A stretch of 26,917 nt of DNA, taken from the NCBI GenBank assembly GCA_964604035.1, contig CAZRXT010000003.1, positions 1 to 26,917 of the forward strand, read 5' to 3'. The position numbers and the translations under genes are program-made. Source of the stretch: an uncultured Prolixibacteraceae bacterium. GTDB taxonomy: Bacteria > Bacteroidota > Bacteroidia > Bacteroidales > Prolixibacteraceae. The notes under the pieces were generated by a model. That model did not search any database. It was not told the DNA's origin and was given only the letters and a program-made list of their open reading frames with translations. Every line of letters begins with the position of its first letter. Within the stretch, counting starts at the first letter, position 1. Positions 1,800-19,400 of this stretch are shown here, piece after piece.

Positions 1800-1895
1800 T
1801 TTCGACCAATTTTATGAATAACAATTGCGACTTGTTTTAGTTAAAAAAATAAAGGTGTTTCAATCAAATTTTAATTATAAAAGAGATATGATTGG

Positions 1896-2426
1896 TCAAC
1901 AAAAATATACTTGATTGTATAGTGTGTTTTTGACTCTCTCAAAATCATTTTTTTCCGATAGGTTTCCAGCGGCCATTAGTCTCATTGGTAGGAAGTCATC
2001 ACCTTTTCGATATGGTGGTTGCTTGTATTCGTGTTGCCAAAGTTGAAATCCAGCTCTTTTGTAAAATTCGATTCGTCGCATACTTATTTCATCTTCAGGT
2101 AATTCAACTTCAAGCACAATTGGTCGATTCCTGTTTTCAATAATGATTTTCAATGCTTGTTGCCCGATTCCCTTATTGCGCATTGTTGGGTCTATGGCAA
2201 AATGTTCGATGTAAATAAAATCATCGAAATCCCAGGAGTTGAGCAGTCCAGCTGGTTGATTATCACTTATAATAATGTGAGTAGAAAAGGCATTGTTGTG
2301 CATCGAAATTTGGCGAAGATGAGCCAAATCTCGTCGTTCCGATTCTGGAAATGAAGCTACAAGCAGGTTTTCGCAATATAGACAATATGCGGTGTCTGTA
2401 GGTTTAATTTTTTGAATAGATACCAT
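1896..2426 (-). CDS. GNAT family N-acetyltransferase
   Basis: 176 aa with acetyl-CoA motif A (YIEHFAIDPTMRNKGIGQ) and motif B (RRIEFYKRAGF). The SFPESERRD N-terminus is typical of Bacteroidales members. Confidence 0.9.
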   Translation of the reverse strand: MVSIQKIKPTDTAYCLYCENLLVASFPESERRDLAHLRQISMHNNAFSTHIIISDNQPAGLLNSWDFDDFIYIEHFAIDPTMRNKGIGQQALKIIIENRNRPIVLEVELPEDEISMRRIEFYKRAGFQLWQHEYKQPPYRKGDDFLPMRLMAAGNLSEKNDFERVKNTLYNQVYFC

Positions 2427-2440
2427 TACTTCTTGCTTAT

Positions 2441-3337
2441 TTAGAAAAGAGTAGGAGGGGTGTCGCTTAGTGTTGACGGTCTTTTTAAGTTTGTTCCGAG
2501 TTCCTTGTTAAGTTTTTCGATGAAATAGGCCGAAAGAAGTGGCGATTCCATTTCGATATTCTGATGGACGAAAAAGTAGATGTCTCGCAATCCCTGATCT
2601 GCCCATGTTCTGAGCCGTGTAACCCACTCGTTGAGACGTTGCCTGTCGCTGTGTTGCTCGTTCGAACCAACATAACGTACAAATGCCATAGGGGTTGTTA
2701 ACCGCATGTGCAGCAAATCTCGCCGGCCAGCTGTATCGACCAAGATATTTGTGATTTTGTACTGTTCGAAAAGTTGAGACACTTCGGAAGAAACTGTTTG
2801 GTTGTTAAACCATTCGGTGTTGCGCATCTCGACAGCCAGTGGAATTGCTTTCGGAAAATTTATGATGAAATTAACTAGCTTATCGAAGTTTTTGTATCCA
2901 AAATTGTCGTTCAATTGGAGGAAAACCATGCCTAGTTTTTCTTCAAAATGGCTGATGCTATCGCAATATTGTTCAGTGAGTTGCGAGACATTTGCCAATC
3001 TGTTCCAGTGACTAATATTTTGGGTGATTTTTGGGAAAAATCTGAAGTCGGCAGGTGTTTTGTCGCGCCAAGCATCTATTTGACTGCTTTTTGGCATATT
3101 GTAAAACGTCGCATTCAGTTCTATGGAATTAAATTGTGTTGAATAATATTGAAGTTCATCTTTTGTGCCTCGCGGATAGAAATTCTTCAAATCTTGTTTG
3201 TTCCATTTTGCACAACCAACAGAAACATTCAAAGGTTTTGATTTGTCGTTTTGTTCAAGAATTATACTTGTTCCCGGATGATCAATGGGTAACGAAAAAT
3301 CAACAGAATCAGGGTTTTCTACTTTTCCAAATTGCAT
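2441..3337 (-). CDS. DUF72 (YecE-like) TIM-barrel protein
   Basis: 298 aa with the family motifs VGCAKW, YYSTQFNSIELNATFY, FFPKITQNISH, LGMVFLQL, AVEMRNTEWF, YVRYVG and YFFVHQ. Confidence 0.92.
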   Translation of the reverse strand: MQFGKVENPDSVDFSLPIDHPGTSIILEQNDKSKPLNVSVGCAKWNKQDLKNFYPRGTKDELQYYSTQFNSIELNATFYNMPKSSQIDAWRDKTPADFRFFPKITQNISHWNRLANVSQLTEQYCDSISHFEEKLGMVFLQLNDNFGYKNFDKLVNFIINFPKAIPLAVEMRNTEWFNNQTVSSEVSQLFEQYKITNILVDTAGRRDLLHMRLTTPMAFVRYVGSNEQHSDRQRLNEWVTRLRTWADQGLRDIYFFVHQNIEMESPLLSAYFIEKLNKELGTNLKRPSTLSDTPPTLF

Positions 3338-11238: not shown

Positions 11239-11754
11239 TTACTCGGAAGCCTTTTCAATTTTCTGTTTTTCAAATTCTTCGCTCGAAATAGGAGTAGCAT
11301 CGTTCAGATCCATTGTTTTTCCATTCTCGTCACTGTCCGAATTTTTAATGGTTTTATTTCCACTACTTTGGTTGTTATTCAACAGTTGTTCTAAAGATTC
11401 TTCTTCTCCTGTTTTTGGAGTAAGTTTATAGTAGTGGCTCGATTTATATTTCATTGCCCATAACCAAGCTGGCCAAAAGAAAAAGCCACCAACAACGGCT
11501 CCTCCATCAACTTCTTCGGTACGGCAAATTGTTGTGTAAAATTCGTTGTATCCCTCTTTTTCTATTCTAATTGAAGAACATGAACCTACAATTTTTGTGT
11601 CGGTCATTGAGTAAGGAGTAACGCCTACAGCTTCTTCGTTTATGTATAATTCGGCACCGCTTGGTGTTGAATTAATAAGTGTTGTGCTGGCGCAACTTGA
11701 AAATAAGATACTTGCAGAAAAGATTAAAACAGAAAGTTTTGTAAAATTTTTCAT
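11239..11754 (-). CDS. PEGA-domain lipoprotein
   Basis: Lipobox LFSSC and PEGA-like INSTPSGAELYINEEAVGVTP...IEKEGY, then a Gly-rich hydrophobic helix and a polar tail. Confidence 0.8.
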   Translation of the reverse strand: MKNFTKLSVLIFSASILFSSCASTTLINSTPSGAELYINEEAVGVTPYSMTDTKIVGSCSSIRIEKEGYNEFYTTICRTEEVDGGAVVGGFFFWPAWLWAMKYKSSHYYKLTPKTGEEESLEQLLNNNQSSGNKTIKNSDSDENGKTMDLNDATPISSEEFEKQKIEKASE

Positions 11755-11869
11755 GGCTATTAATTTTAATGTTATGCTATTGTTGTTTACAATAACTATA
11801 CCATAATTTTCGACTATTGAATGAACTTGCTGCTTTAATGTTCATTCCTTTTTCAGATTATGAAAGAGA

Positions 11870-12904
11870 TTATGCCGAAAACTCTTTAACCGCTTTTATA
11901 AAGGCATTAATATTATCGTTCGATACATTTGGAGGCATACCACCTCCGCACGACGGTAACAACATCTTTTTATTCTCGACTAATTGCAGCATTTCCTTAG
12001 TTTGATTATAAACTTCATCGGGGCTACATGCGGCAAGTACATCGCGAGGAGGAAGGCTTCCTAAGATAACAACCTTATTTTCTGTTATTTCATGCAATTC
12101 ATTTATCGATAGCTCAAGTCCTGGATTATATAAGTTGATTCCAATTTCAGAGTAATATTTCACCGATGAAGAACAATCAGCATCATTGTGGAAGAATTTC
12201 ACACTTACATCGGTGTCGTAAATCTCTTTAAGATAAGGGTATCCAAATTCCATGAATTCATCTTCGCCAACAAAACCTACAATATCGTCGAGCATTAGTA
12301 TGCCATCAATGGTTGTAATTGTTTCGCGTTGCAGTTTATGCCACTGTTTCAGAAAATCGGTAATAACTCTCAGTAGTTTATGAACTTTATCGGGTTCCAT
12401 CATCATTGTGGTCATCAATTCTGTTGTTCCCATCAGGAATGATGCAATATTTAGAGGGCCTCTTGATACTGAAAATCGAATTTTATGTCCTGCGGCTTCA
12501 ATTGCTGGCTGTGCAATTTTCAATCGGTTAAGCATAAATGGCAATAAACCATCAGTTTCGGGACTAGGAATTTCTAAATTGTCAATGTCTTCTGAAGAAT
12601 GGATAACTTTTTCAGCAAAAGGGAATTCGTTTTTCCAGAAAACACATTTAGCGCCAAAAGCCGATGGTTCGGTGCACATTCCATATTCACTCCAGAAACC
12701 AGGCAAAAACATTACATCTGGGAATGTTTCAATGGCTTTTAAATTCGCTTTAAGCCACAAATCATCGTTCGAAAAATAATCGAGGATGGAAATGCCGTAC
12801 CATTTAGGGAGCCATGGGCAATCAACAATAAAACCTACAGGCAAACCTCCTGTATTTTCTCCTTTAATAATCGACAGTAAGTCATTCCATTGTTTATCAG
12901 TCAT
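11870..12904 (-). CDS. UroD/MtaA-CmuA superfamily TIM-barrel protein, probable corrinoid-dependent methyltransferase (not HemE)
   Basis: Fold motifs EPSAFGAK, RGPLNIASFLMG...EPDKVH, LDDIVG, FFHND, ILGSLPP and SCGGGMPPNVSNDNINA. The HemE MRQAGR motif is absent. Divergent from corrinoid genes. Confidence 0.85.
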   Translation of the reverse strand: MTDKQWNDLLSIIKGENTGGLPVGFIVDCPWLPKWYGISILDYFSNDDLWLKANLKAIETFPDVMFLPGFWSEYGMCTEPSAFGAKCVFWKNEFPFAEKVIHSSEDIDNLEIPSPETDGLLPFMLNRLKIAQPAIEAAGHKIRFSVSRGPLNIASFLMGTTELMTTMMMEPDKVHKLLRVITDFLKQWHKLQRETITTIDGILMLDDIVGFVGEDEFMEFGYPYLKEIYDTDVSVKFFHNDADCSSSVKYYSEIGINLYNPGLELSINELHEITENKVVILGSLPPRDVLAACSPDEVYNQTKEMLQLVENKKMLLPSCGGGMPPNVSNDNINAFIKAVKEFSA

Positions 12905-13145
12905 GATGTATTCTTTTTTGATTTAAGTGAAATAATATCCAACTAAATTAAGAACTTCATCTGTAGTAGGAAATGTTTTTTATCAAAAGTTCGATAAAAA
13001 GTATGTTTTGGGAGAAATAAAAGAGTTTGAAATTTGAAAAAGAAGCAGGATCGACATATTTTTATAAATTATAACAATGATCTTAGATTTTATGAGGTTA
13101 TTTCGTAATTAATAGTTCATTTTAGGTTCTAATTAAGTTGATATT

Positions 13146-14030
13146 ATGAATAAAATAAGTCAAGAAATATTGAGTGGGAATATTTTAGTTTCCGATGGTG
13201 CTTGGGGAACTTTTCTTCAACAAAAAGGTCTATTGCCTGGCGAATGTCCTGAGTCTTGGAATACATTACATCCCGAAAAAGTTCTCGAAATAGCTCAAAG
13301 TTATATCGATGCAGGTTCCGATATGATTGAAACAAATAGTTTTGGGGGCAACCGCATCAAACTCTCTTATTTTGGAAAAGAAGATCAGGTTTATGAACTA
13401 AACAAAGCTGCTGCCGAAATTTCGCGGAAAGCTGCTGGTCCCAACAAACATGTACTTGGCTCTATTGGACCAACGGGGAAGTTTTTAATAACTGGCGATG
13501 TAACCGAAGAAGAGTTGTTCGAAGTCTTTAAAGAACAGGCAATTGCTTTGGAAGCAGGTGGTGCCGATGCTCTGATTATTGAGACAATGACCGATATTGA
13601 TGAGGCAAAAATTGCGATAAGAGCTTGCAAAGAAAACACTTCGTGCGAAGTGATTTGCACTATGACATTTGACAAAACAGATGAAGCCGTTTTCTATACA
13701 ATGATGGGTGTAACGCCTGCCGATATGACAACTGAACTTGTGGATGCCGGTGTTGATATAATTGGTGCCAATTGTGGAAACGGAATGGAAAATATGGTTG
13801 GCATAACCAAAGAAATACGAGCTGCAAACGCTGAAATTCCTATTCTGATTCATGCAAATGCCGGTGCTCCGGTTTTTCAGAACAACGAAACCCTGTTTCT
13901 TGAAACGCCCGATATTACCGCAGGTTTTGTGAACCCGCTGATTGATGCCGGAGCCAACATTATAGGAGGCTGCTGCGGTACAACGCCCGCACATATTAAA
14001 AGTATAGCTCAAATGGTGAAGCGTAATTAG
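13146..14030 (+). CDS. Stand-alone homocysteine S-methyltransferase domain (MetH Hcy module)
   Basis: LVSDGAWGT, AGSDMIETNSFG, GSIGPTG, IIETM, Zn ligands GANC and GGCCGTTP, and ANAG. Confidence 0.95.
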   Translation: MNKISQEILSGNILVSDGAWGTFLQQKGLLPGECPESWNTLHPEKVLEIAQSYIDAGSDMIETNSFGGNRIKLSYFGKEDQVYELNKAAAEISRKAAGPNKHVLGSIGPTGKFLITGDVTEEELFEVFKEQAIALEAGGADALIIETMTDIDEAKIAIRACKENTSCEVICTMTFDKTDEAVFYTMMGVTPADMTTELVDAGVDIIGANCGNGMENMVGITKEIRAANAEIPILIHANAGAPVFQNNETLFLETPDITAGFVNPLIDAGANIIGGCCGTTPAHIKSIAQMVKRN

Positions 14031-14076
14031 TCTATAAATTACTACTACAATATTTTTATAACTAATCTTTTTTAAG

Positions 14077-14751
14077 ATGAATGCTGAAGAGATATTATTA
14101 AAACTTGCTGAATGTGTTGAGTTTGGCAAAGTGAACAAAGCAGCTCCATTTCCACCAGCAATGAAGGGGATGGATGGTGCCGACGAACTTACCAAGCAAG
14201 CACTTGAAATCGGTGTGAAACCTGTTGATATACTGAATGAAGCTTTAATAAAAGCGATGGATAAAGTGGGCGAAAAGTTTACTCAAAAAAAGATTTTCGT
14301 TCCACAAATGTTAATCGCGGCCAAAGCAATGAATGCTTCGATGGAACATTTGAAACCGTTTTTTCAGAGCGGAGAAGTGAAGCGAAAAGGGAAATTCATT
14401 ATTGGCACTGTTGCCGGCGATTTGCACGATATTGGCAAGAATCTGGTTGCCATGATTGTTGAAGGTGCAGGTTGGGAAGTAATTGATTTGGGCGTAGATG
14501 TTAGTGCTGCCAAGTTTTTACAGGCAATAAAAGAAAATGAAGGCGCTGTTGTTGGTCTATCGGCCTTGTTAACTACAACAATGCTTAGTATGAAAAACAT
14601 AGTTGCAGAAATTAAACGTGAGTATCCAAATGTCACATGTCTTATTGGAGGAGCTCCTATAAATGATCAGTTTATGGTTGAAATTGGAGCCGATGGCTAT
14701 TCTTCCGACCCACAGGGAGCTGTAAATTATTTGAATGCTCTGGTTGCCTGA
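14077..14751 (+). CDS. Stand-alone corrinoid (cobalamin-binding) protein with cap domain
   Basis: Cap helices (AMDKVGEKF...FVPQML), base-off His-on motif GDLHDIGKNLV, VIDLGVDV, GLSALLTTT and IGGAP. Confidence 0.95.
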   Translation: MNAEEILLKLAECVEFGKVNKAAPFPPAMKGMDGADELTKQALEIGVKPVDILNEALIKAMDKVGEKFTQKKIFVPQMLIAAKAMNASMEHLKPFFQSGEVKRKGKFIIGTVAGDLHDIGKNLVAMIVEGAGWEVIDLGVDVSAAKFLQAIKENEGAVVGLSALLTTTMLSMKNIVAEIKREYPNVTCLIGGAPINDQFMVEIGADGYSSDPQGAVNYLNALVA

Positions 14752-14775
14752 TTCTGCTTTTAAAATTTGATTTAA

Positions 14776-15513
14776 TTGGATAAAACTGAAAATATCGAAG
14801 AGGTTATCTCAACCCTTTCAAGTTGTTCCGAAACGTTTATTCCCGAAATTGGGAAAGATGATGTTAATCTTGTGAATATCTTGAAAGGGTTGGGCATGAC
14901 TCTTGCCGATGCTGACGATTACCTGCTCGAACTTATTGATAGGTTTACGCTCGAATGCATCCAACTTCTTCAACCCAAAACATGCTTCTCGGTCTATTCT
15001 GACTTGCATTTCGATTTGAAAGAGAATACGATAACCATTTCAAATCAGACTTTCGAAACAGGGAAAACGGTAACTCAATTATTGAAAAAAAGTGAAGCAA
15101 TAGTTCTTTTTGCTTGCACCACGGGTTCGGCAGTTACAAAACTTTCGAAAACACTTCTTTCTGAAGGACATGTACTTGAGGGGCTTTTGGTCGATTTAAT
15201 TGGGTCCGAACTTGCCGAGTCTATAACCGAACATCTGCATGTTTTTATCGGAACAAAATTTGGAAAGGCGGGGCTCAATGTTTCTAATCGGTTTAGCCCA
15301 GGATATTGCAACTGGTCTGTTTCTGAACAACAAAAACTTTTTCCACTTTTACCTGGCAATCATTCAGGTATTCAACTAACACCATCATCTTTAATGATTC
15401 CTATTAAGTCAGTTAGTGGAATTCTTGGAGTAGGTACTTCTGTAAAAAAAGTTGCTTACAAATGCGATGTTTGTAACGACACGAAGTGTATTATGAGGAG
15501 TTCTGGATTGTAG
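14776..15513 (+). CDS. Stand-alone B12-dependent methionine synthase activation (SAM-binding) domain protein
   Basis: LFACTTG, DLIGSELAE, RFSPGYCNW, GIQLT..SLMIPIKSVSGILG and C-terminal CDVCNDTKC. TTG start is uncertain. Confidence 0.85.
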   Translation: MDKTENIEEVISTLSSCSETFIPEIGKDDVNLVNILKGLGMTLADADDYLLELIDRFTLECIQLLQPKTCFSVYSDLHFDLKENTITISNQTFETGKTVTQLLKKSEAIVLFACTTGSAVTKLSKTLLSEGHVLEGLLVDLIGSELAESITEHLHVFIGTKFGKAGLNVSNRFSPGYCNWSVSEQQKLFPLLPGNHSGIQLTPSSLMIPIKSVSGILGVGTSVKKVAYKCDVCNDTKCIMRSSGL

Positions 15514-15602
15514 TTTTTGTTCAAAATTCAAATTTCATACATTTAACCTGCTTATACATTGAATCTTTAATCATTTCAATTTCTTCTAATTATTCTTTAA
15601 AA

Positions 15603-15610
15603 TACCTTTG
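15603..15610 (+). promoter_or_regulatory. Candidate Bacteroidota -7 box for the 8-TM/80-aa cassette
   Basis: TACCTTTG matches TAnnTTTG. A near -33 element (TTTC, 15580-15583) lies 19 bp upstream. Confidence 0.45.
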
Positions 15611-15725
15611 GGTCTGTTATTGTTCATTCAAAATTTTGTTTTAAATTGTATACTATTCTTCTGTTTCAATTTTTTACAACTAAGATTTTATTGAGTGATT
15701 ATTTGTAGACATTAAATATAAACTT

Positions 15726-16541
15726 ATGAGAGCTAATAGAATTAATATTGTTTGGTACTTTGTTCTGGCAATTGTTTTTATCAACATTTTCTTCTATGTT
15801 GTTAAGCCCGGGGGAGAGATGGTGTTAACCATCGTAAGTGACTTGCTGCCTGTAATATGTTCCTTGATTACTATTGTTGCTCTTTGGGGAACATTTAAAG
15901 CTTTTAAAGTTCATGATTATACAAGAACAGCTTGGTTCCTGATTTTTGTTGGCATGATTATGAATTTTTTAGGCGAATCTTCTTACTCTTATCAAGAGAT
16001 TATTCTTAAGGTTGATTTAGCAAATATTGCTTACAGTATTTCTGATTTGTTTTGGTTTTCAAGTTATCTTTTTTGTATAACTGGATTGTCAATCCTAATT
16101 AGAGGATACTTTAAAAGCGACTTTCCAATTGGTAATCAATTACATCTTACATTAGTTATGCTGTTATTGGTTTTGTTAATAGCAATTTTGATTGTCGTTC
16201 TACTTCAGCCAATTGTTAAAGATGTCGAAACTCCGATGTTAGATAAGGTCGTTTATCTTTTATATCCAATTTTTGATATGATTCAGGTAATAATTGCTTG
16301 TGCGTTGCTATTTATTGTCCGAAAATTTAAAGGTGGATTAGTAAAAGCTCCTTGGCGATTAATTGCTGCTGGATTTTTGTTTATGGCAGTTTCAGATATC
16401 ATGTTTTCTTATTTTAGCTGGAACGATGCTTATGGTAGTGGCAATTTTATCGACTTAGGTTGGAATGCGGGTTATTTGCTTATTGCAATGGCGGGTTTAT
16501 ATCAAAAGAATTTAGTTAAATCGTTAGATGGAGGTGTATGA
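15726..16541 (+). CDS. Uncharacterised 8-TM membrane protein resembling the N-terminal membrane sensor module of GGDEF/His-kinase proteins, with no output domain
   Basis: Eight hydrophobic stretches by eye. Motifs R-x-AW...G, SISDLFWFSSY, LLYPIFD, W-x-LIAAG...SD and IDLGWNAGY. The protein ends about 12 aa after the last TM. Confidence 0.75.
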   Translation: MRANRINIVWYFVLAIVFINIFFYVVKPGGEMVLTIVSDLLPVICSLITIVALWGTFKAFKVHDYTRTAWFLIFVGMIMNFLGESSYSYQEIILKVDLANIAYSISDLFWFSSYLFCITGLSILIRGYFKSDFPIGNQLHLTLVMLLLVLLIAILIVVLLQPIVKDVETPMLDKVVYLLYPIFDMIQVIIACALLFIVRKFKGGLVKAPWRLIAAGFLFMAVSDIMFSYFSWNDAYGSGNFIDLGWNAGYLLIAMAGLYQKNLVKSLDGGV

Positions 16542-16780
16542 TGGGGAATGTATATGCAAATAGGTATGCTGCTCAAATTTTTGCCATATTGTCGCCACTT
16601 ATTGGTGAGTTAATGGCTAAAGGCGCAATTAGGTCGCAATGTAATAGACTTGGAATTACTGAAGATGGTATTGAAAAACAGCATATTCCTGTGCTTGCCG
16701 AAGGGGTAAAGAAAGCTATGACATTATTTGTTGGGTCTGAAGGAGCGTCGCAAATTGAAAAAAGGATAAGATTAATTTGA
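16538..16780 (+). CDS. Small all-helical hypothetical protein (80 aa)
   Basis: ATGA overlap with the upstream stop, an amphipathic helical pattern (LSPLIGELMAKGAI...FVGSEGASQI), and a terminator directly after. Confidence 0.75.
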   Translation: MMGNVYANRYAAQIFAILSPLIGELMAKGAIRSQCNRLGITEDGIEKQHIPVLAEGVKKAMTLFVGSEGASQIEKRIRLI

Positions 16781-16847: not shown

Positions 16848-18248
16848 TTACAAATACGACCAATCTCCTTTTTCGGGGATTTCAATATCCGTAAAGCCTT
16901 TATTTCCTAGGTATTCTTTATAGGCCAGTTGAGATTCGTATTGACCATGAACTATAAAGGTCTTTTTTATTCGATCGATAATTTGACAGTCAAGAAATTC
17001 TGCCATTTCTTCATAATCGCCGTGTCCACTATATGCCTCAATCCTAAATATTTCGGCTCTAACAGGATAAACAATTCCATGTATTGATACTTCTTTGTCA
17101 CCCCTTAATATCTTAGCACCCAAAGTGCTTGGCGAACAATACCCAACCGCTAGAACCGAGTTCCGTTCGTTCGAAATTGTGTTGGCCAGATGGTGTTTTA
17201 CGCGTCCGGCTTCCATCATTCCTGAGGCTGAAATTACGACGCAAGGTTCTTTGCTGTCATTAATTTTTTTCGATTCTTCAACAGTTCTTACATAGTAGAG
17301 CCGTTCAAATCCAAAAGGATCATAATCATAGCGCAACTCATGTTGTATCTCTTCGTTCAAATTGTCGAGGTGATACCTGAAAACTTCGGTAGCACTAACC
17401 GAAAGTGGACTATCAACAAAAATGTCGATTCTGGGTAGTCGTCCTTCGTTAAAGAGTTGATTTAGAGTGTATACAATTTCTTGCGTACGGCCAACACTAA
17501 ACGATGGGATGATTAGTTTGCCTTTCTTAACAACACAGGTATGATGTATGGCATATAAAAGATCTTCGCGTGCTTCTTCGTGTTTTTTGTGAAGCCTGTC
17601 GCCATAAGTAGCTTCAGTTATAAGATAATCGGCTTGAGGAAATGGTTCTGGCGATTTCAGAATCATATTGCTTTTACGTCCGATATCGCCAGTATATGCG
17701 AGTTTCTTTAATCCGTCGGTTTCATTCACCTCAAGAGAAACAACGCTGCTACCAAGCATGTGCCCCGAGTTTGTAAATCTCACTTTAATATCTTCATTTA
17801 TGTAGAATTTTCTATCGTATTCTACCGCAATGAACAGTTGCATTGCCTTTTCGGCATCTTTACGAGTGTAAATTGGTTCAACCGGAGGCAAGCCTTGAAA
17901 AGCTCTTTTTTTGTTGAATTTTATAGTATCGGCTTCATGTATTGCACCCGAATCGGCCAACATAATTGCACATAAATCGCGGGTTGCACTAGTACAAATA
18001 ATCGACCCCCTGAACCCTAGTTTGTAAACGTAAGGTATTAATCCTGAATGGTCTATATGCGCGTGGCTCAGAATGATGTGGTCAATTTCAAGCGGATCGA
18101 ATCCTAAATCGCGGTTCAAACTGTCGGTTTCCAACCCTTTTCCTTGATATAATCCACAATCGAGAAGAATTTTCTTGTCTTTTTGGGTAATTATCAAATG
18201 TTTACTTCCGGTAACCTCGCGGGCTGCCCCTAAAAATTTTACAATCAT
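16848..18248 (-). CDS. Metallo-beta-lactamase/beta-CASP ribonuclease (COG1236/YSH1-like)
   Basis: GAAREVTGSKH, LLDCG, SHAHIDH, GHMLGS, TGDIG, EATYGDR, PSFSVGRTQE, SASGM, YSGHGD and VHG. Confidence 0.95.
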   Translation of the reverse strand: MIVKFLGAAREVTGSKHLIITQKDKKILLDCGLYQGKGLETDSLNRDLGFDPLEIDHIILSHAHIDHSGLIPYVYKLGFRGSIICTSATRDLCAIMLADSGAIHEADTIKFNKKRAFQGLPPVEPIYTRKDAEKAMQLFIAVEYDRKFYINEDIKVRFTNSGHMLGSSVVSLEVNETDGLKKLAYTGDIGRKSNMILKSPEPFPQADYLITEATYGDRLHKKHEEAREDLLYAIHHTCVVKKGKLIIPSFSVGRTQEIVYTLNQLFNEGRLPRIDIFVDSPLSVSATEVFRYHLDNLNEEIQHELRYDYDPFGFERLYYVRTVEESKKINDSKEPCVVISASGMMEAGRVKHHLANTISNERNSVLAVGYCSPSTLGAKILRGDKEVSIHGIVYPVRAEIFRIEAYSGHGDYEEMAEFLDCQIIDRIKKTFIVHGQYESQLAYKEYLGNKGFTDIEIPEKGDWSYL

Positions 18249-18272: not shown

Positions 18273-19400
18273 TTACTTTTTTATGCCGTTTGGATAGGTC
18301 TTTTCAGGGTATTTTTCGCTGAAGGCTTTCAATCCGGCACCGCATTGTTCTAATGAACCAAAACGGTCTACTCCGTTCGATGTCCAAACCATTAAACCTT
18401 TCCATCCATTTTCATACGTTTTTATGAAGGCATCTTTTATCGGTACTACTAATGAGTCTTGGTTTGAATCTGTTTGCTGAAAAATCCCTGTTGCAGGGTT
18501 TTCGCCTATCATGCAAGGTCGGTCGTTAATACCATAATCTGATGGAGTTTTTTCGGTGCAGAAATTCCCAAACCATTTTACTACCCAACCATAAAAATGT
18601 GGCGAGTAAAAATCGAGGAACGCAAGTGGCGAATCTACTTGTGATTGCAGCGACTTGTTGCTCCAGTAATTTTTTTCCATCAAATCGGGAAGGTCACTGT
18701 TCCATTTTATTGCAGCACTTCCAACAGTAAAAAGGATTTCACTATTTTGGTGAACCGCAACAGCAACTTTTGCCATAAGGTATTGCAAATCTTCCCAAGG
18801 CGCCTGAGCATTGTCTTTATCTTGATGCACCCATTCTATTTCGTTACAGCCGTCGATACTCCACAAATATGGGTTGTTTTTATATCGAGTTATAAAAGGG
18901 ACAACGTAGTTTGAAACGTAAGCATCGGTCTTTTCTTTGCTGCTGATTAGCTTTCTCCATTTTGTATGATTTGGATGGCTGGCTTTTGTGTGGTCGAACG
19001 ATAATAATGTTGCCATAATATAAATCTGATGCTTTTGGGCCAAAGCAAACATGTCGTCCAAATCTTTCCAATGAGCTTTAGTTGCACCTGAAACAAAGCC
19101 ATTCTGGTCGATTTTTATGCCTTTTTCGCCATCACACGAAATCCATATTCTTGAAGAGTTTCCTCCCGCTTCTCGAATGCGCTGAAATTCACTGTCCCAA
19201 AAGCTGTGACGATATTTGCCTCCAAAGTCATTCCATTTATCCCAAGGAGTATTAACTCCATTCATGAAAATTTCTTTTCCATCAACGGTAAACAAAACAC
19301 CTTCTGCTTTAATTCGCTGTGCCGATAAATTAGTTGTTGACAATATATTTATTGATGAAATCATCAATAGTACTTGCAAAATATTTCTACCTGTAATCAT
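18273..19400 (-). CDS. Secreted GH5 glycoside hydrolase, probably GH5_10-like endo-beta-1,4-mannanase
   Basis: Signal peptide ending LSA|Q. Motifs FMNGVNTPW, GGNSSRIW, DQNGFVSG, acid/base NE (CNEIEW), TVGS, FYSPHFY, nucleophile IGE and WT. The motif order matches my recollection of mollusc GH5_10 Man5A. Confidence 0.8.
   Translation of the reverse strand: MITGRNILQVLLMISSINILSTTNLSAQRIKAEGVLFTVDGKEIFMNGVNTPWDKWNDFGGKYRHSFWDSEFQRIREAGGNSSRIWISCDGEKGIKIDQNGFVSGATKAHWKDLDDMFALAQKHQIYIMATLLSFDHTKASHPNHTKWRKLISSKEKTDAYVSNYVVPFITRYKNNPYLWSIDGCNEIEWVHQDKDNAQAPWEDLQYLMAKVAVAVHQNSEILFTVGSAAIKWNSDLPDLMEKNYWSNKSLQSQVDSPLAFLDFYSPHFYGWVVKWFGNFCTEKTPSDYGINDRPCMIGENPATGIFQQTDSNQDSLVVPIKDAFIKTYENGWKGLMVWTSNGVDRFGSLEQCGAGLKAFSEKYPEKTYPNGIKK

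Follow-up and report, generated by a model that had tools for sequence, protein, structure and literature searches.

A putative modular corrinoid methyltransferase with a UroD-fold methyl loader in Bacteroidales, and O-methyl sugars as its candidate donors

The DNA analysed here (the window) is a stretch of 26,917 nucleotides, contig C3 of the genome of an uncultured Prolixibacteraceae bacterium, taken here to be an anaerobe that degrades xylan; this genome assembly amounts to 2.8 Mb in 489 contigs and is 85% complete, and the closest protein relatives of the window lie in metagenome-assembled genomes (MAGs) of Prolixibacteraceae. Our subject is a set of four genes spanning positions 11870-15513, one on the minus strand followed by three closely packed genes on the plus strand. 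The first (11870-12904, minus) encodes a UroD-fold protein of 344 residues (Pfam URO-D, 115 bits). Across a divergent, AT-rich intergenic region of 241 bp (12905-13145), which from the sequence we presume to hold the promoters of both transcription units, lie genes for a stand-alone homocysteine S-methyltransferase of 294 residues (13146-14030, plus; Pfam S-methyl_trans, 234 bits over the full profile), a corrinoid (B12) carrier protein of 224 residues with cap and Rossmann domains (14077-14751, plus; Pfam B12-binding_2 and B12-binding) and a 245-residue protein with a TTG start that resembles the activation domain of methionine synthase, MetH (14776-15513, plus; Pfam Met_synt_B12, 46 bits). 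We refer to the last three genes as the trio. A sequence-only reading of this DNA had described separate homocysteine, cobalamin and activation genes facing a UroD-fold gene, and the Pfam matches and the motifs GANC, GGCC, DLHDIG and RFSPGY, located below, bear this out. None of the four proteins reaches an equivalog cut-off in NCBIfam.

The UroD-fold protein falls below the cut-offs of both named families to which it might be assigned, scoring 64.7 bits against the MtaA/CmuA model TIGR01463 (cut-off 235) and 48.6 bits against the hemE model TIGR01464 (cut-off 302.95), with which it shares the fold alone. The best matches among PDB chains were true UROD, and because these were weak (E ~1e-4) a fold search was needed: the AlphaFold2 model (pLDDT 95.8) resembles UROD and MtaA (4ay7) in Foldseek, with TM scores of 0.78-0.82. 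The protein has no signal peptide. The motif HND occupies residues 239-241 (window 12182-12190), and SCGGG residues 318-322 (11939-11953). In an alignment of 42 sequences, where the motifs read H-N-[DE] and later S-x-G-G-G, H239 is invariant and N240 nearly so. In this subfamily HND and SxGGG occupy the positions of HxCG and GC(D), so the zinc cysteines of the MtaA type are absent, while two paralogues in the same alignment, one on contig C118 of this genome (G000) and one in genome G003, carry HNCG and SGCD, the MtaA zinc pattern. Judged by this motif pattern, the UroD-fold protein belongs to a subfamily of its own and can be taken neither for HemE nor for an MT2 that activates thiols. Relatives at E <= 1e-30 number 122 among 1.8 billion cluster representatives, many of them fragmentary, and orthologues (>50% identical) come from MAGs of Bacteroidales, Ignavibacteriales, Kiritimatiellota, Verrucomicrobiota and Planctomycetota and from a few isolates. 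Among cultivable organisms, Roseimarinus sediminis (DSM 28824) and Anaerophaga thermohalophila possess these same genes. A protein-atlas look-up returned unnamed 'URO-D family' clusters and nothing else.

The stand-alone homocysteine module has the three zinc-ligand cysteines that are required of the MetH homocysteine-binding module, in GANCG (residues 207-211, window 13764-13778) and GGCCG (residues 274-278, window 13965-13979); in NCBIfam it matches the N-terminal part of PRK08645 (263 bits), PRK07534 (245 bits) and metH at positions 3-313 (171 bits). The carrier has DLHDIG at residues 115-120 (window 14419-14436), in a D-x-H-x-x-G block that is invariant across 23 orthologues, and this block, the mark of base-off/His-on binding, stands with the cap and Rossmann domains expected of a methyltransferase corrinoid protein. 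Its best NCBIfam matches are corrinoid proteins of methyltransferases (MtgC, MtbC, MtaC), the models MtgC, pyl_corrinoid and MtbC giving 145-181 bits, each below cut-off, and because it scores 167 bits against TIGR02370, whose cut-off is 215, we take it for a distinct subfamily of methyltransferase corrinoid proteins.

The match of the activation-like protein to Met_synt_B12 (PF02965, cut-off 25 bits) runs over residues 105-220 and takes in profile positions 119-249 of 273 only; its N-terminal 100 residues are without a match. RFSPGY lies at residues 172-177 (RFSPGYC, window 15289-15309), and in the corresponding block of 17 orthologues, [RT]-[FY]-SPG-[YF]-C, S174, P175, G176 and C178 are invariant and R172 and Y177 nearly so. 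C178, right after the S-adenosylmethionine (SAM) motif, is one of four cysteines that are invariant in these orthologues, the others being C230, C233 and C238 of a C-terminal C-x2-C-x4-C motif (window 15463-15489). To our knowledge the activation domain of E. coli MetH has no such site. A metal or an Fe-S cluster may be bound there and accept the electron for reactivation. Membership of the MetH family (TIGR02082) asks for homocysteine, pterin, B12 and activation modules that jointly reach 1010.85 bits; the trio proteins match different stretches of this model with 171, 135 and 27.5 bits and fall short of it.

We assessed linkage in 80 loci carrying UroD-fold orthologues, and co-occurrence in 100 Bacteroidales genomes, one per family. 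At least one trio gene adjoins the UroD-fold gene in 33 of the 80 loci, and all three do so in 20; the usual arrangement is divergent, and is co-directional once (L079), in the order UroD-fold gene, homocysteine methyltransferase, carrier, activation gene. The activation gene itself is mostly found in one operon with its trio partners, directly 3' of the gene for the corrinoid protein or the homocysteine methyltransferase. Eight of the 100 genomes encode the UroD-fold protein. The stand-alone homocysteine methyltransferase occurs in 15, comprising seven of those eight and eight of the remaining 92 (one-sided Fisher p = 3e-6), and the activation protein, also present in 15, is likewise found in seven of the eight (p = 3e-6). 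Activation protein and homocysteine methyltransferase occur together in 12 of these 15 genomes, and the activation protein without the methyltransferase in three. Stand-alone homologues of the corrinoid protein and the homocysteine methyltransferase are also encoded, at other sites, in each of five additional genomes that have the UroD-fold gene in sugar clusters (55-66% identity in two Bacteroidota, 39-48% in three Planctomycetota). Both the co-occurrence and the adjacency lend support to the earlier proposal that the UroD-fold protein stands in place of the folate module and passes a non-folate methyl group via the corrinoid to homocysteine. As an observation apart, a protein of ~370 residues without a Pfam match adjoins the UroD-fold gene in four Bacteroidales loci (L121:6424-7527; L034, L048 and L051), its copies being 72-80% identical.

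Complex prediction for the UroD-fold protein with the corrinoid carrier gave a score of 0.75, against 0.13 for the best control; a score of 0.75 is reached by 58 of 80 solved complexes and by 2 of 110 mismatched pairs, counts that apply here only approximately because our prediction used our own alignments. At least 74% of contacts agree between runs, and partner pLDDT is at least 83. The predicted interface joins the DxHxxG face of the carrier (residues 117-122) to stretches of the barrel adjacent to HND (residues 159-170, 211-216 and 243-246). The prediction favours binding between the two proteins without proving it, and resemblance to solved corrinoid-protein complexes may contribute to the score.

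Our interpretation of this set of results is that the four genes would form a modular, folate-independent corrinoid methyltransferase made up of a first methyltransferase (MT-I), a corrinoid protein, a second methyltransferase (MT-II) and an activator. In the first step the UroD-fold enzyme, acting in the cytoplasm as MT-I (methyl donor:Co(I)-corrinoid protein methyltransferase), would move a methyl group from a carbohydrate-derived methyl ether onto the Co(I) corrinoid protein. The most likely donor would be 4-O-methyl-D-glucuronate, freed from glucuronoxylan or arabinogalactan by alpha- or beta-glucuronidases, and demethylation would yield glucuronate for the Uxu/Uxa pathway. In the second step, suggested by homology to the homocysteine module of MetH and to MtgE-type proteins of roseobacters, the zinc-dependent homocysteine module would act as MT-II (methyl-Co(III)-corrinoid protein:homocysteine methyltransferase), transferring the methyl group from methyl-Co(III) to homocysteine to give methionine. 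Oxidised Co(II) would be returned to methyl-Co(III) in a third step, for which the conserved SAM-binding motif argues, by SAM-dependent reductive reactivation on the activation-like protein, with an electron perhaps supplied via the site of four invariant cysteines. The general scheme, in which a non-folate methyl group loaded by the UroD-fold protein passes via the corrinoid protein to homocysteine, we judge to be probably correct on the combined evidence of sequence comparison and modelling.

The identity of the donor is a separate matter, for which the earlier reading had listed O-methyl sugars, methoxy-aromatics and methanol. Among these, gene context favours the O-methyl sugars and narrows them to 4-O-methyl-glucuronate, and no aromatic-catabolism genes were seen in the loci examined. 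The UroD-fold gene lies within ~10 kb of xylan-degradation genes in four of the eight genomes that have it, glycoside hydrolase (GH) family GH115 being near in three and GH43 in the fourth. In one of these (G070) the genes for GH115, MFS_2, GH10, GH43, the UroD-fold protein, UxuA and an esterase are read in that order; in another (G083) the UroD-fold gene diverges from a row running LacI, MFS_2, GH10, GH3, GH115; in a third (G051) LacI and the UroD-fold gene run one way, and an esterase and GH115 the other; and in the fourth (G012) the UroD-fold gene stands, in opposite orientation, between GH43 with one intervening gene and the genes for the homocysteine methyltransferase and activation protein. 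Elsewhere it is preceded by UxaB, UxaA and an SDR gene (L057) or lies between LacI and a downstream GH2 (G033). GH115 is present in seven of the eight genomes with the UroD-fold protein and in 11 of the 92 without it (one-sided Fisher p = 1e-5), and the genome studied here has at least three GH115 genes in addition to GH10, GH43, UxuA and UxaA/B. The GH115 enzymes free glucuronic acid and its 4-O-methyl ether from xylan, and the methyl ether should bar entry to the isomerase, reductase and dehydratase pathway that the adjacent genes encode. When co-directional neighbours of the UroD-fold gene, 86 in all and from loci not explained by known clusters, were classified by Pfam, mixed housekeeping functions prevailed, with a few sugar genes among them; the enrichment came from the targeted loci and not from this census. 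As the methyl donor, 4-O-methyl-glucuronate is in our view a tentative assignment from gene context that falls somewhat short of probable. We put forward with similar reserve, as a possibility to be taken seriously, that anaerobic Bacteroidota and their relatives have in this UroD-fold subfamily the O-demethylase for 4-O-methyl-glucuronic acid that works without oxygen and has so far been missing. There a Co(I) corrinoid would cleave an unactivated alkyl methyl ether and the methyl group would go to methionine or, where a pterin MT-II, MTHFR and FTHFS are present, to formate.

The scheme could be right and the donor something other than a sugar, such as a methoxylated aromatic (lignin-derived and freed together with xylan), methanol or a methylated thiol. 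The characterised UroD-superfamily MT-I enzymes OdmB and VdmB take phenyl methyl ethers (PMC10418091), feruloylated or lignin-linked xylan would supply such donors in the same setting, and sugar genes are absent beside the cluster in our window. Set against this are the recurrent neighbours, namely glucuronidases (GH115 and a GH2), UxuA, UxaA, UxaB, sugar transporters and LacI/AraC regulators; the zinc site expected for thiol chemistry is also missing. We consider a non-sugar donor unlikely.

Several observations weigh against the scheme as a whole or against its sugar donor. Trio genes are lacking within 8 kb in 46 of the 80 UroD-fold loci. The sequence-only reading would have been contradicted by a lack of co-occurrence of the UroD-fold gene with the trio in other genomes; seven of the eight genomes with the UroD-fold protein have the stand-alone homocysteine methyltransferase, but the UroD partner is not obligatory, as eight of the 15 trio-bearing Bacteroidales lack the subfamily, and one genome pairs the trio with an MttB homologue. 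In the co-occurrence statistics each genome, one per family, counts as independent and residual phylogeny is ignored, and a polysaccharide-degrading lifestyle is a possible confounder. In our window no xylan or uronate genes adjoin the cluster, which is flanked by unrelated genes: PdxB, MscL and a PEGA protein stand at one end, and at the other a pair of membrane proteins and a beta-CASP nuclease. Orthologues in Planctomycetota and some Bacteroidota sit not with glucuronidases but with AraC, DUF6807, ThuA and TAT-exported Gfo/Idh/MocA proteins, and loci of this type sometimes include SusC/SusD or a sulfatase as well; in view of this context, different clades may use different donors, or some other sugar derivative may be the substrate. 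In a quick maximum-likelihood tree the Planctomycetota members form a separate clade, and the trio-adjacent and xylan-context members are intermixed in one Bacteroidota-dominated clade (SH-aLRT 99). Finally, on a rough estimate, bulk catabolism of xylan methyl-glucuronate would supply ~10 times more methyl than is needed for methionine and SAM. By that estimate a homocysteine-only sink fits scavenging better than bulk catabolism, for which it looks too small; in this genome the system may thus serve to scavenge methyl groups, or there may be another acceptor that is unassembled or went unrecognised.

A further possibility is that the trio is a split MetH which still uses methyl-tetrahydrofolate, its pterin module being supplied in trans by canonical MetH or by an unassembled gene, and that the UroD-fold gene is an unrelated neighbour. 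Split MetH with separate genes is established in Phaeobacter and Burkholderia (PMC5764234; 10.1101/741918), and GapMind pairs BT0249 of B. thetaiotaomicron, which is PF02965 alone, with BT0180. The earlier reading had called for a search of the genome for metH and a stand-alone pterin protein. A full MetH was found, split by the assembly between contigs C419 (homocysteine module; metH model positions 1-349) and C427 (pterin, B12 and the start of the activation domain; positions 334-1007), the latter contig ending at PF02965 positions 2-85 (111 bits). A stand-alone pterin methyltransferase, in the form of a pterin MT-II with MTHFR, was not found in the 85%-complete genome, and nor was MttB. Pterin-binding PF00809 is confined to two contigs of the whole genome, C279 (a FolP-like protein of 292 residues) and C427 (MetH); the window has no pterin-binding gene, as the sequence-only reading had said. 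Its further remark that a RACo activator is lacking also held, RACo_C_ter (PF14574) having no match anywhere in the genome at 85% completeness. Because a MetH with its own activation domain is present, we conclude from the gene content that the four-gene cluster is an additional system, not the cell's sole methionine synthase, and that MetH does not depend on the activation-like protein for its completion.

With a canonical MetH that has its own pterin module, a second methyl-tetrahydrofolate enzyme would be redundant. A consistent pterin partner of the trio, named beforehand as the observation that would count against a folate-independent route, was not seen: a pterin gene lies within 8 kb of the trio in one of the 33 trio-bearing UroD-fold loci (L054), directly after the activation gene. 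That locus and the incompleteness of our genome argue for a folate-dependent split MetH, while the tracking of the trio by the UroD-fold gene across families and the complex prediction, which passes its controls, argue against it. We hold a folate-dependent split enzyme to be quite unlikely.

The trio is not tied to a single partner. In G075 it adjoins an MttB-family gene, in the order carrier, homocysteine methyltransferase, activation gene, MttB-family gene; in G070 the homocysteine methyltransferase lies beside a URO-D paralogue of 417 residues, and the carrier and activation genes beside another URO-D paralogue and an MFS transporter; and in G003 the carrier directly follows a zinc-type URO-D gene, with a LacI regulator. 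RACo stands beside an orthologous corrinoid protein in G004 and L063. In G004 (L104, contig C18, 5051-13333) the carrier orthologue and RACo face AraC, FocA (a formate channel), FTHFS, a pterin methyltransferase and MTHFR, and in L054 (2959-5261) the trio is followed by the same pair of pterin methyltransferase and MTHFR as in G004. Because of these varied neighbourhoods, the carrier is best read as working with several loaders and with activators and acceptors of two kinds each. The set of pterin methyltransferase, MTHFR, FTHFS and formate channel suggests that some genomes would oxidise the transferred methyl group to formate. In two Planctomycetota (L105, G005:C10, 6950-11749; L106, G001:C306) a corrinoid protein gene is divergent from genes for a 696-residue fused ETF-like protein and an ETF-QO-like Fe-S flavoprotein, a pair that could provide electrons for corrinoid reduction by another route.

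It might also be supposed that the UroD-fold protein is a B12-independent sugar-acid enzyme, for instance a cofactor-less decarboxylase like true UroD, and that its adjacency to corrinoid genes is fortuitous or regulatory. The 46 loci without a trio gene would fit this, as would Planctomycetota operons that have exported oxidoreductases and no corrinoid gene, and the best PDB sequence matches, weak as they are, are to true UROD. Yet every sugar-cluster genome tested has stand-alone homologues of the corrinoid protein and homocysteine methyltransferase, the co-occurrence in seven of eight genomes and the 33 adjacent loci with their one co-directional operon remain, the hemE score is 48.6 bits against a cut-off of 303, and docking to the cofactor face of the carrier is predicted with passed controls; such an enzyme is in our view improbable. 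Least probable is that the activation-like protein serves canonical MetH, as proposed for BT0249 and BT0180 of B. thetaiotaomicron, with no separate system involved, for although the split-candidate logic of GapMind (10.1101/741918) and the three genomes that have this protein without a stand-alone homocysteine methyltransferase speak for it, 12 of 15 genomes have both proteins, their genes mostly sharing an operon, and the MetH on C427 enters its own activation domain, which led us to reject for this genome the idea of a mere completion of a truncated MetH.

Returning to the corrinoid scheme, the genome holds other genes that touch on it. There are two further URO-D paralogues, on contigs C118 and C199. 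The C118 protein (L113:5769-6902), with the MtaA-type zinc pattern HNCG ... SGCD, is 48% identical to the G003 protein encoded directly 5' of a corrinoid protein under a LacI regulator; from its motifs it may be a thiol-methylating acceptor enzyme, and so a candidate for the second methyl acceptor. On C199 (L006:1192-1830 and 1827-3326) a second corrinoid protein is followed directly by a URO-D protein fused to DUF1638, which runs off the contig end. DUF1638 has been genetically linked to B12 reactivation in Phaeobacter. Contig C18 of this genome (L114:4139-9702) encodes a stand-alone B12-binding protein between two histidine kinases, one of which combines several PAS domains with a PocR sensory domain; judged by its gene content, this locus seems to be a signalling module linked to B12 and separate from the methyltransferase set.

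Within the window, an Rfam scan over the full length matched no family, hence no B12 or SAM riboswitch. A scan of 11700-15800 for sigma-70-type promoters gave fewer sites than in shuffled sequence; the consensus is not that of Bacteroidota, whose promoters are not sigma-70-type, so the scan is uninformative and defines no promoter, and a terminator scan of the same region returned none that was convincing. The flanking beta-CASP metallo-beta-lactamase nuclease (16848-18248, minus) scores 415 bits against the NCBIfam model for type VII CRISPR Cas14 (cut-off 800) and 303 bits against aCPSF1. Two neighbouring proteins, one of 271 residues (15726-16780, plus) whose gene has a 4-base overlap with an open reading frame of 80 residues and one of 375 residues (18273-19400, minus), have neither a Pfam nor an NCBIfam match.

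Hardwood xylan and arabinogalactan proteins carry 4-O-methyl-glucuronic acid as their main methylated side chain, and in guts, sediments and digesters large amounts of this sugar acid are freed from the xylan of wood and cereals. Our literature search found no description of the anaerobic removal of its methyl ether and no corrinoid-dependent demethylase of this or other methylated sugars; the only sugar O-demethylases it returned are oxygen-dependent cytochromes P450. If the proposal is correct, a corrinoid-dependent route would supply a step that models of hemicellulose breakdown by anaerobes now lack, and a B12-dependent trait would be added to fibre-degrading Bacteroidota, with a bearing on corrinoid cross-feeding. 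Ether cleavage by Co(I) would be widened from aryl to alkyl (sugar) methyl ethers, and its coupling to homocysteine would make plant cell walls a direct, folate-independent source of methionine methyl groups.

Among known systems, the clusters of mlp genes classed as type 1, which have several SCMT-like Mlps with a Ram/RACE activase and occur mainly in Firmicutes (PMC10418091), were considered and rejected as an identity for our locus, whose loader lacks the zinc motif and whose activator is PF02965-like. The P450 sugar O-demethylases of marine Flavobacteriia, which act on 6-O-methyl-galactose (PMC6292453), answer the same need of removing a methyl ether that blocks sugar catabolism; their fold is unrelated, and they need oxygen and give off formaldehyde, whereas the system proposed here would be oxygen-free and would conserve the methyl group. 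MtaA and MtbA (PDB 4ay7) share with the UroD-fold protein the TIM-barrel fold, at TM scores of 0.81-0.83, and a separate corrinoid partner, but have a thiol-activating H-x-C...C zinc site, in place of which our protein has H-N-D and S-x-G-G-G.

Canonical MetH and its two-gene forms (BT0180 with BT0249, and Burkholderia; 10.1101/741918) share with the window's set the zinc, DxHxxG and RxxxGY motifs, and their modules for homocysteine, the B12 cap, B12 and activation are homologous to those found here. The set in the window differs in having no pterin module, in making each module a separate protein and in an activation protein that corresponds to profile positions 119-249 only, with an added C-terminal cysteine motif; a complete MetH coexists in the genome.

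The nearest mechanistic analogue is the anaerobic aryl O-demethylase, and the nearest described system is the split MetH of roseobacters, MtgBCDE. The aryl O-demethylases, three- or four-component systems such as Odm and Vdm of Acetobacterium dehalogenans (PMC10418091), have the architecture proposed here of MT-I, corrinoid protein, MT-II and activator, with UroD-fold MT-I enzymes (OdmB, VdmB) and oxygen-free ether cleavage. They act on phenyl methyl ethers, pass the methyl group to tetrahydrofolate and use an ATP-dependent RACo-type activator, while for the window system the corresponding elements would be an alkyl (sugar) methyl ether, homocysteine and a SAM-type activator. The roseobacter system (MtgB, MtgC, MtgD and MtgE with RamA and DUF1638, in Ruegeria pomeroyi and Phaeobacter inhibens; PMC12478193, PMC5764234) likewise encodes its corrinoid carrier and a stand-alone homocysteine methyltransferase in different genes, and one carrier is common to a catabolic methyl loader and to methionine synthesis, as we propose here. 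The likeness extends to sequence, since the homocysteine module of the window matches PRK07534, a betaine--homocysteine S-methyltransferase model, at 245 bits, and MtgE is described as homologous to the predicted Bhmt of S. meliloti. The roseobacters are aerobes in which an MttB-family protein loads the methyl group of glycine betaine, MtgD binds the pterin, and RamA with DUF1638 carries out reactivation; the window system, by contrast, has no stand-alone pterin module, and would combine a UroD-fold loader with PF02965-like reactivation in anaerobic Bacteroidales hosts.

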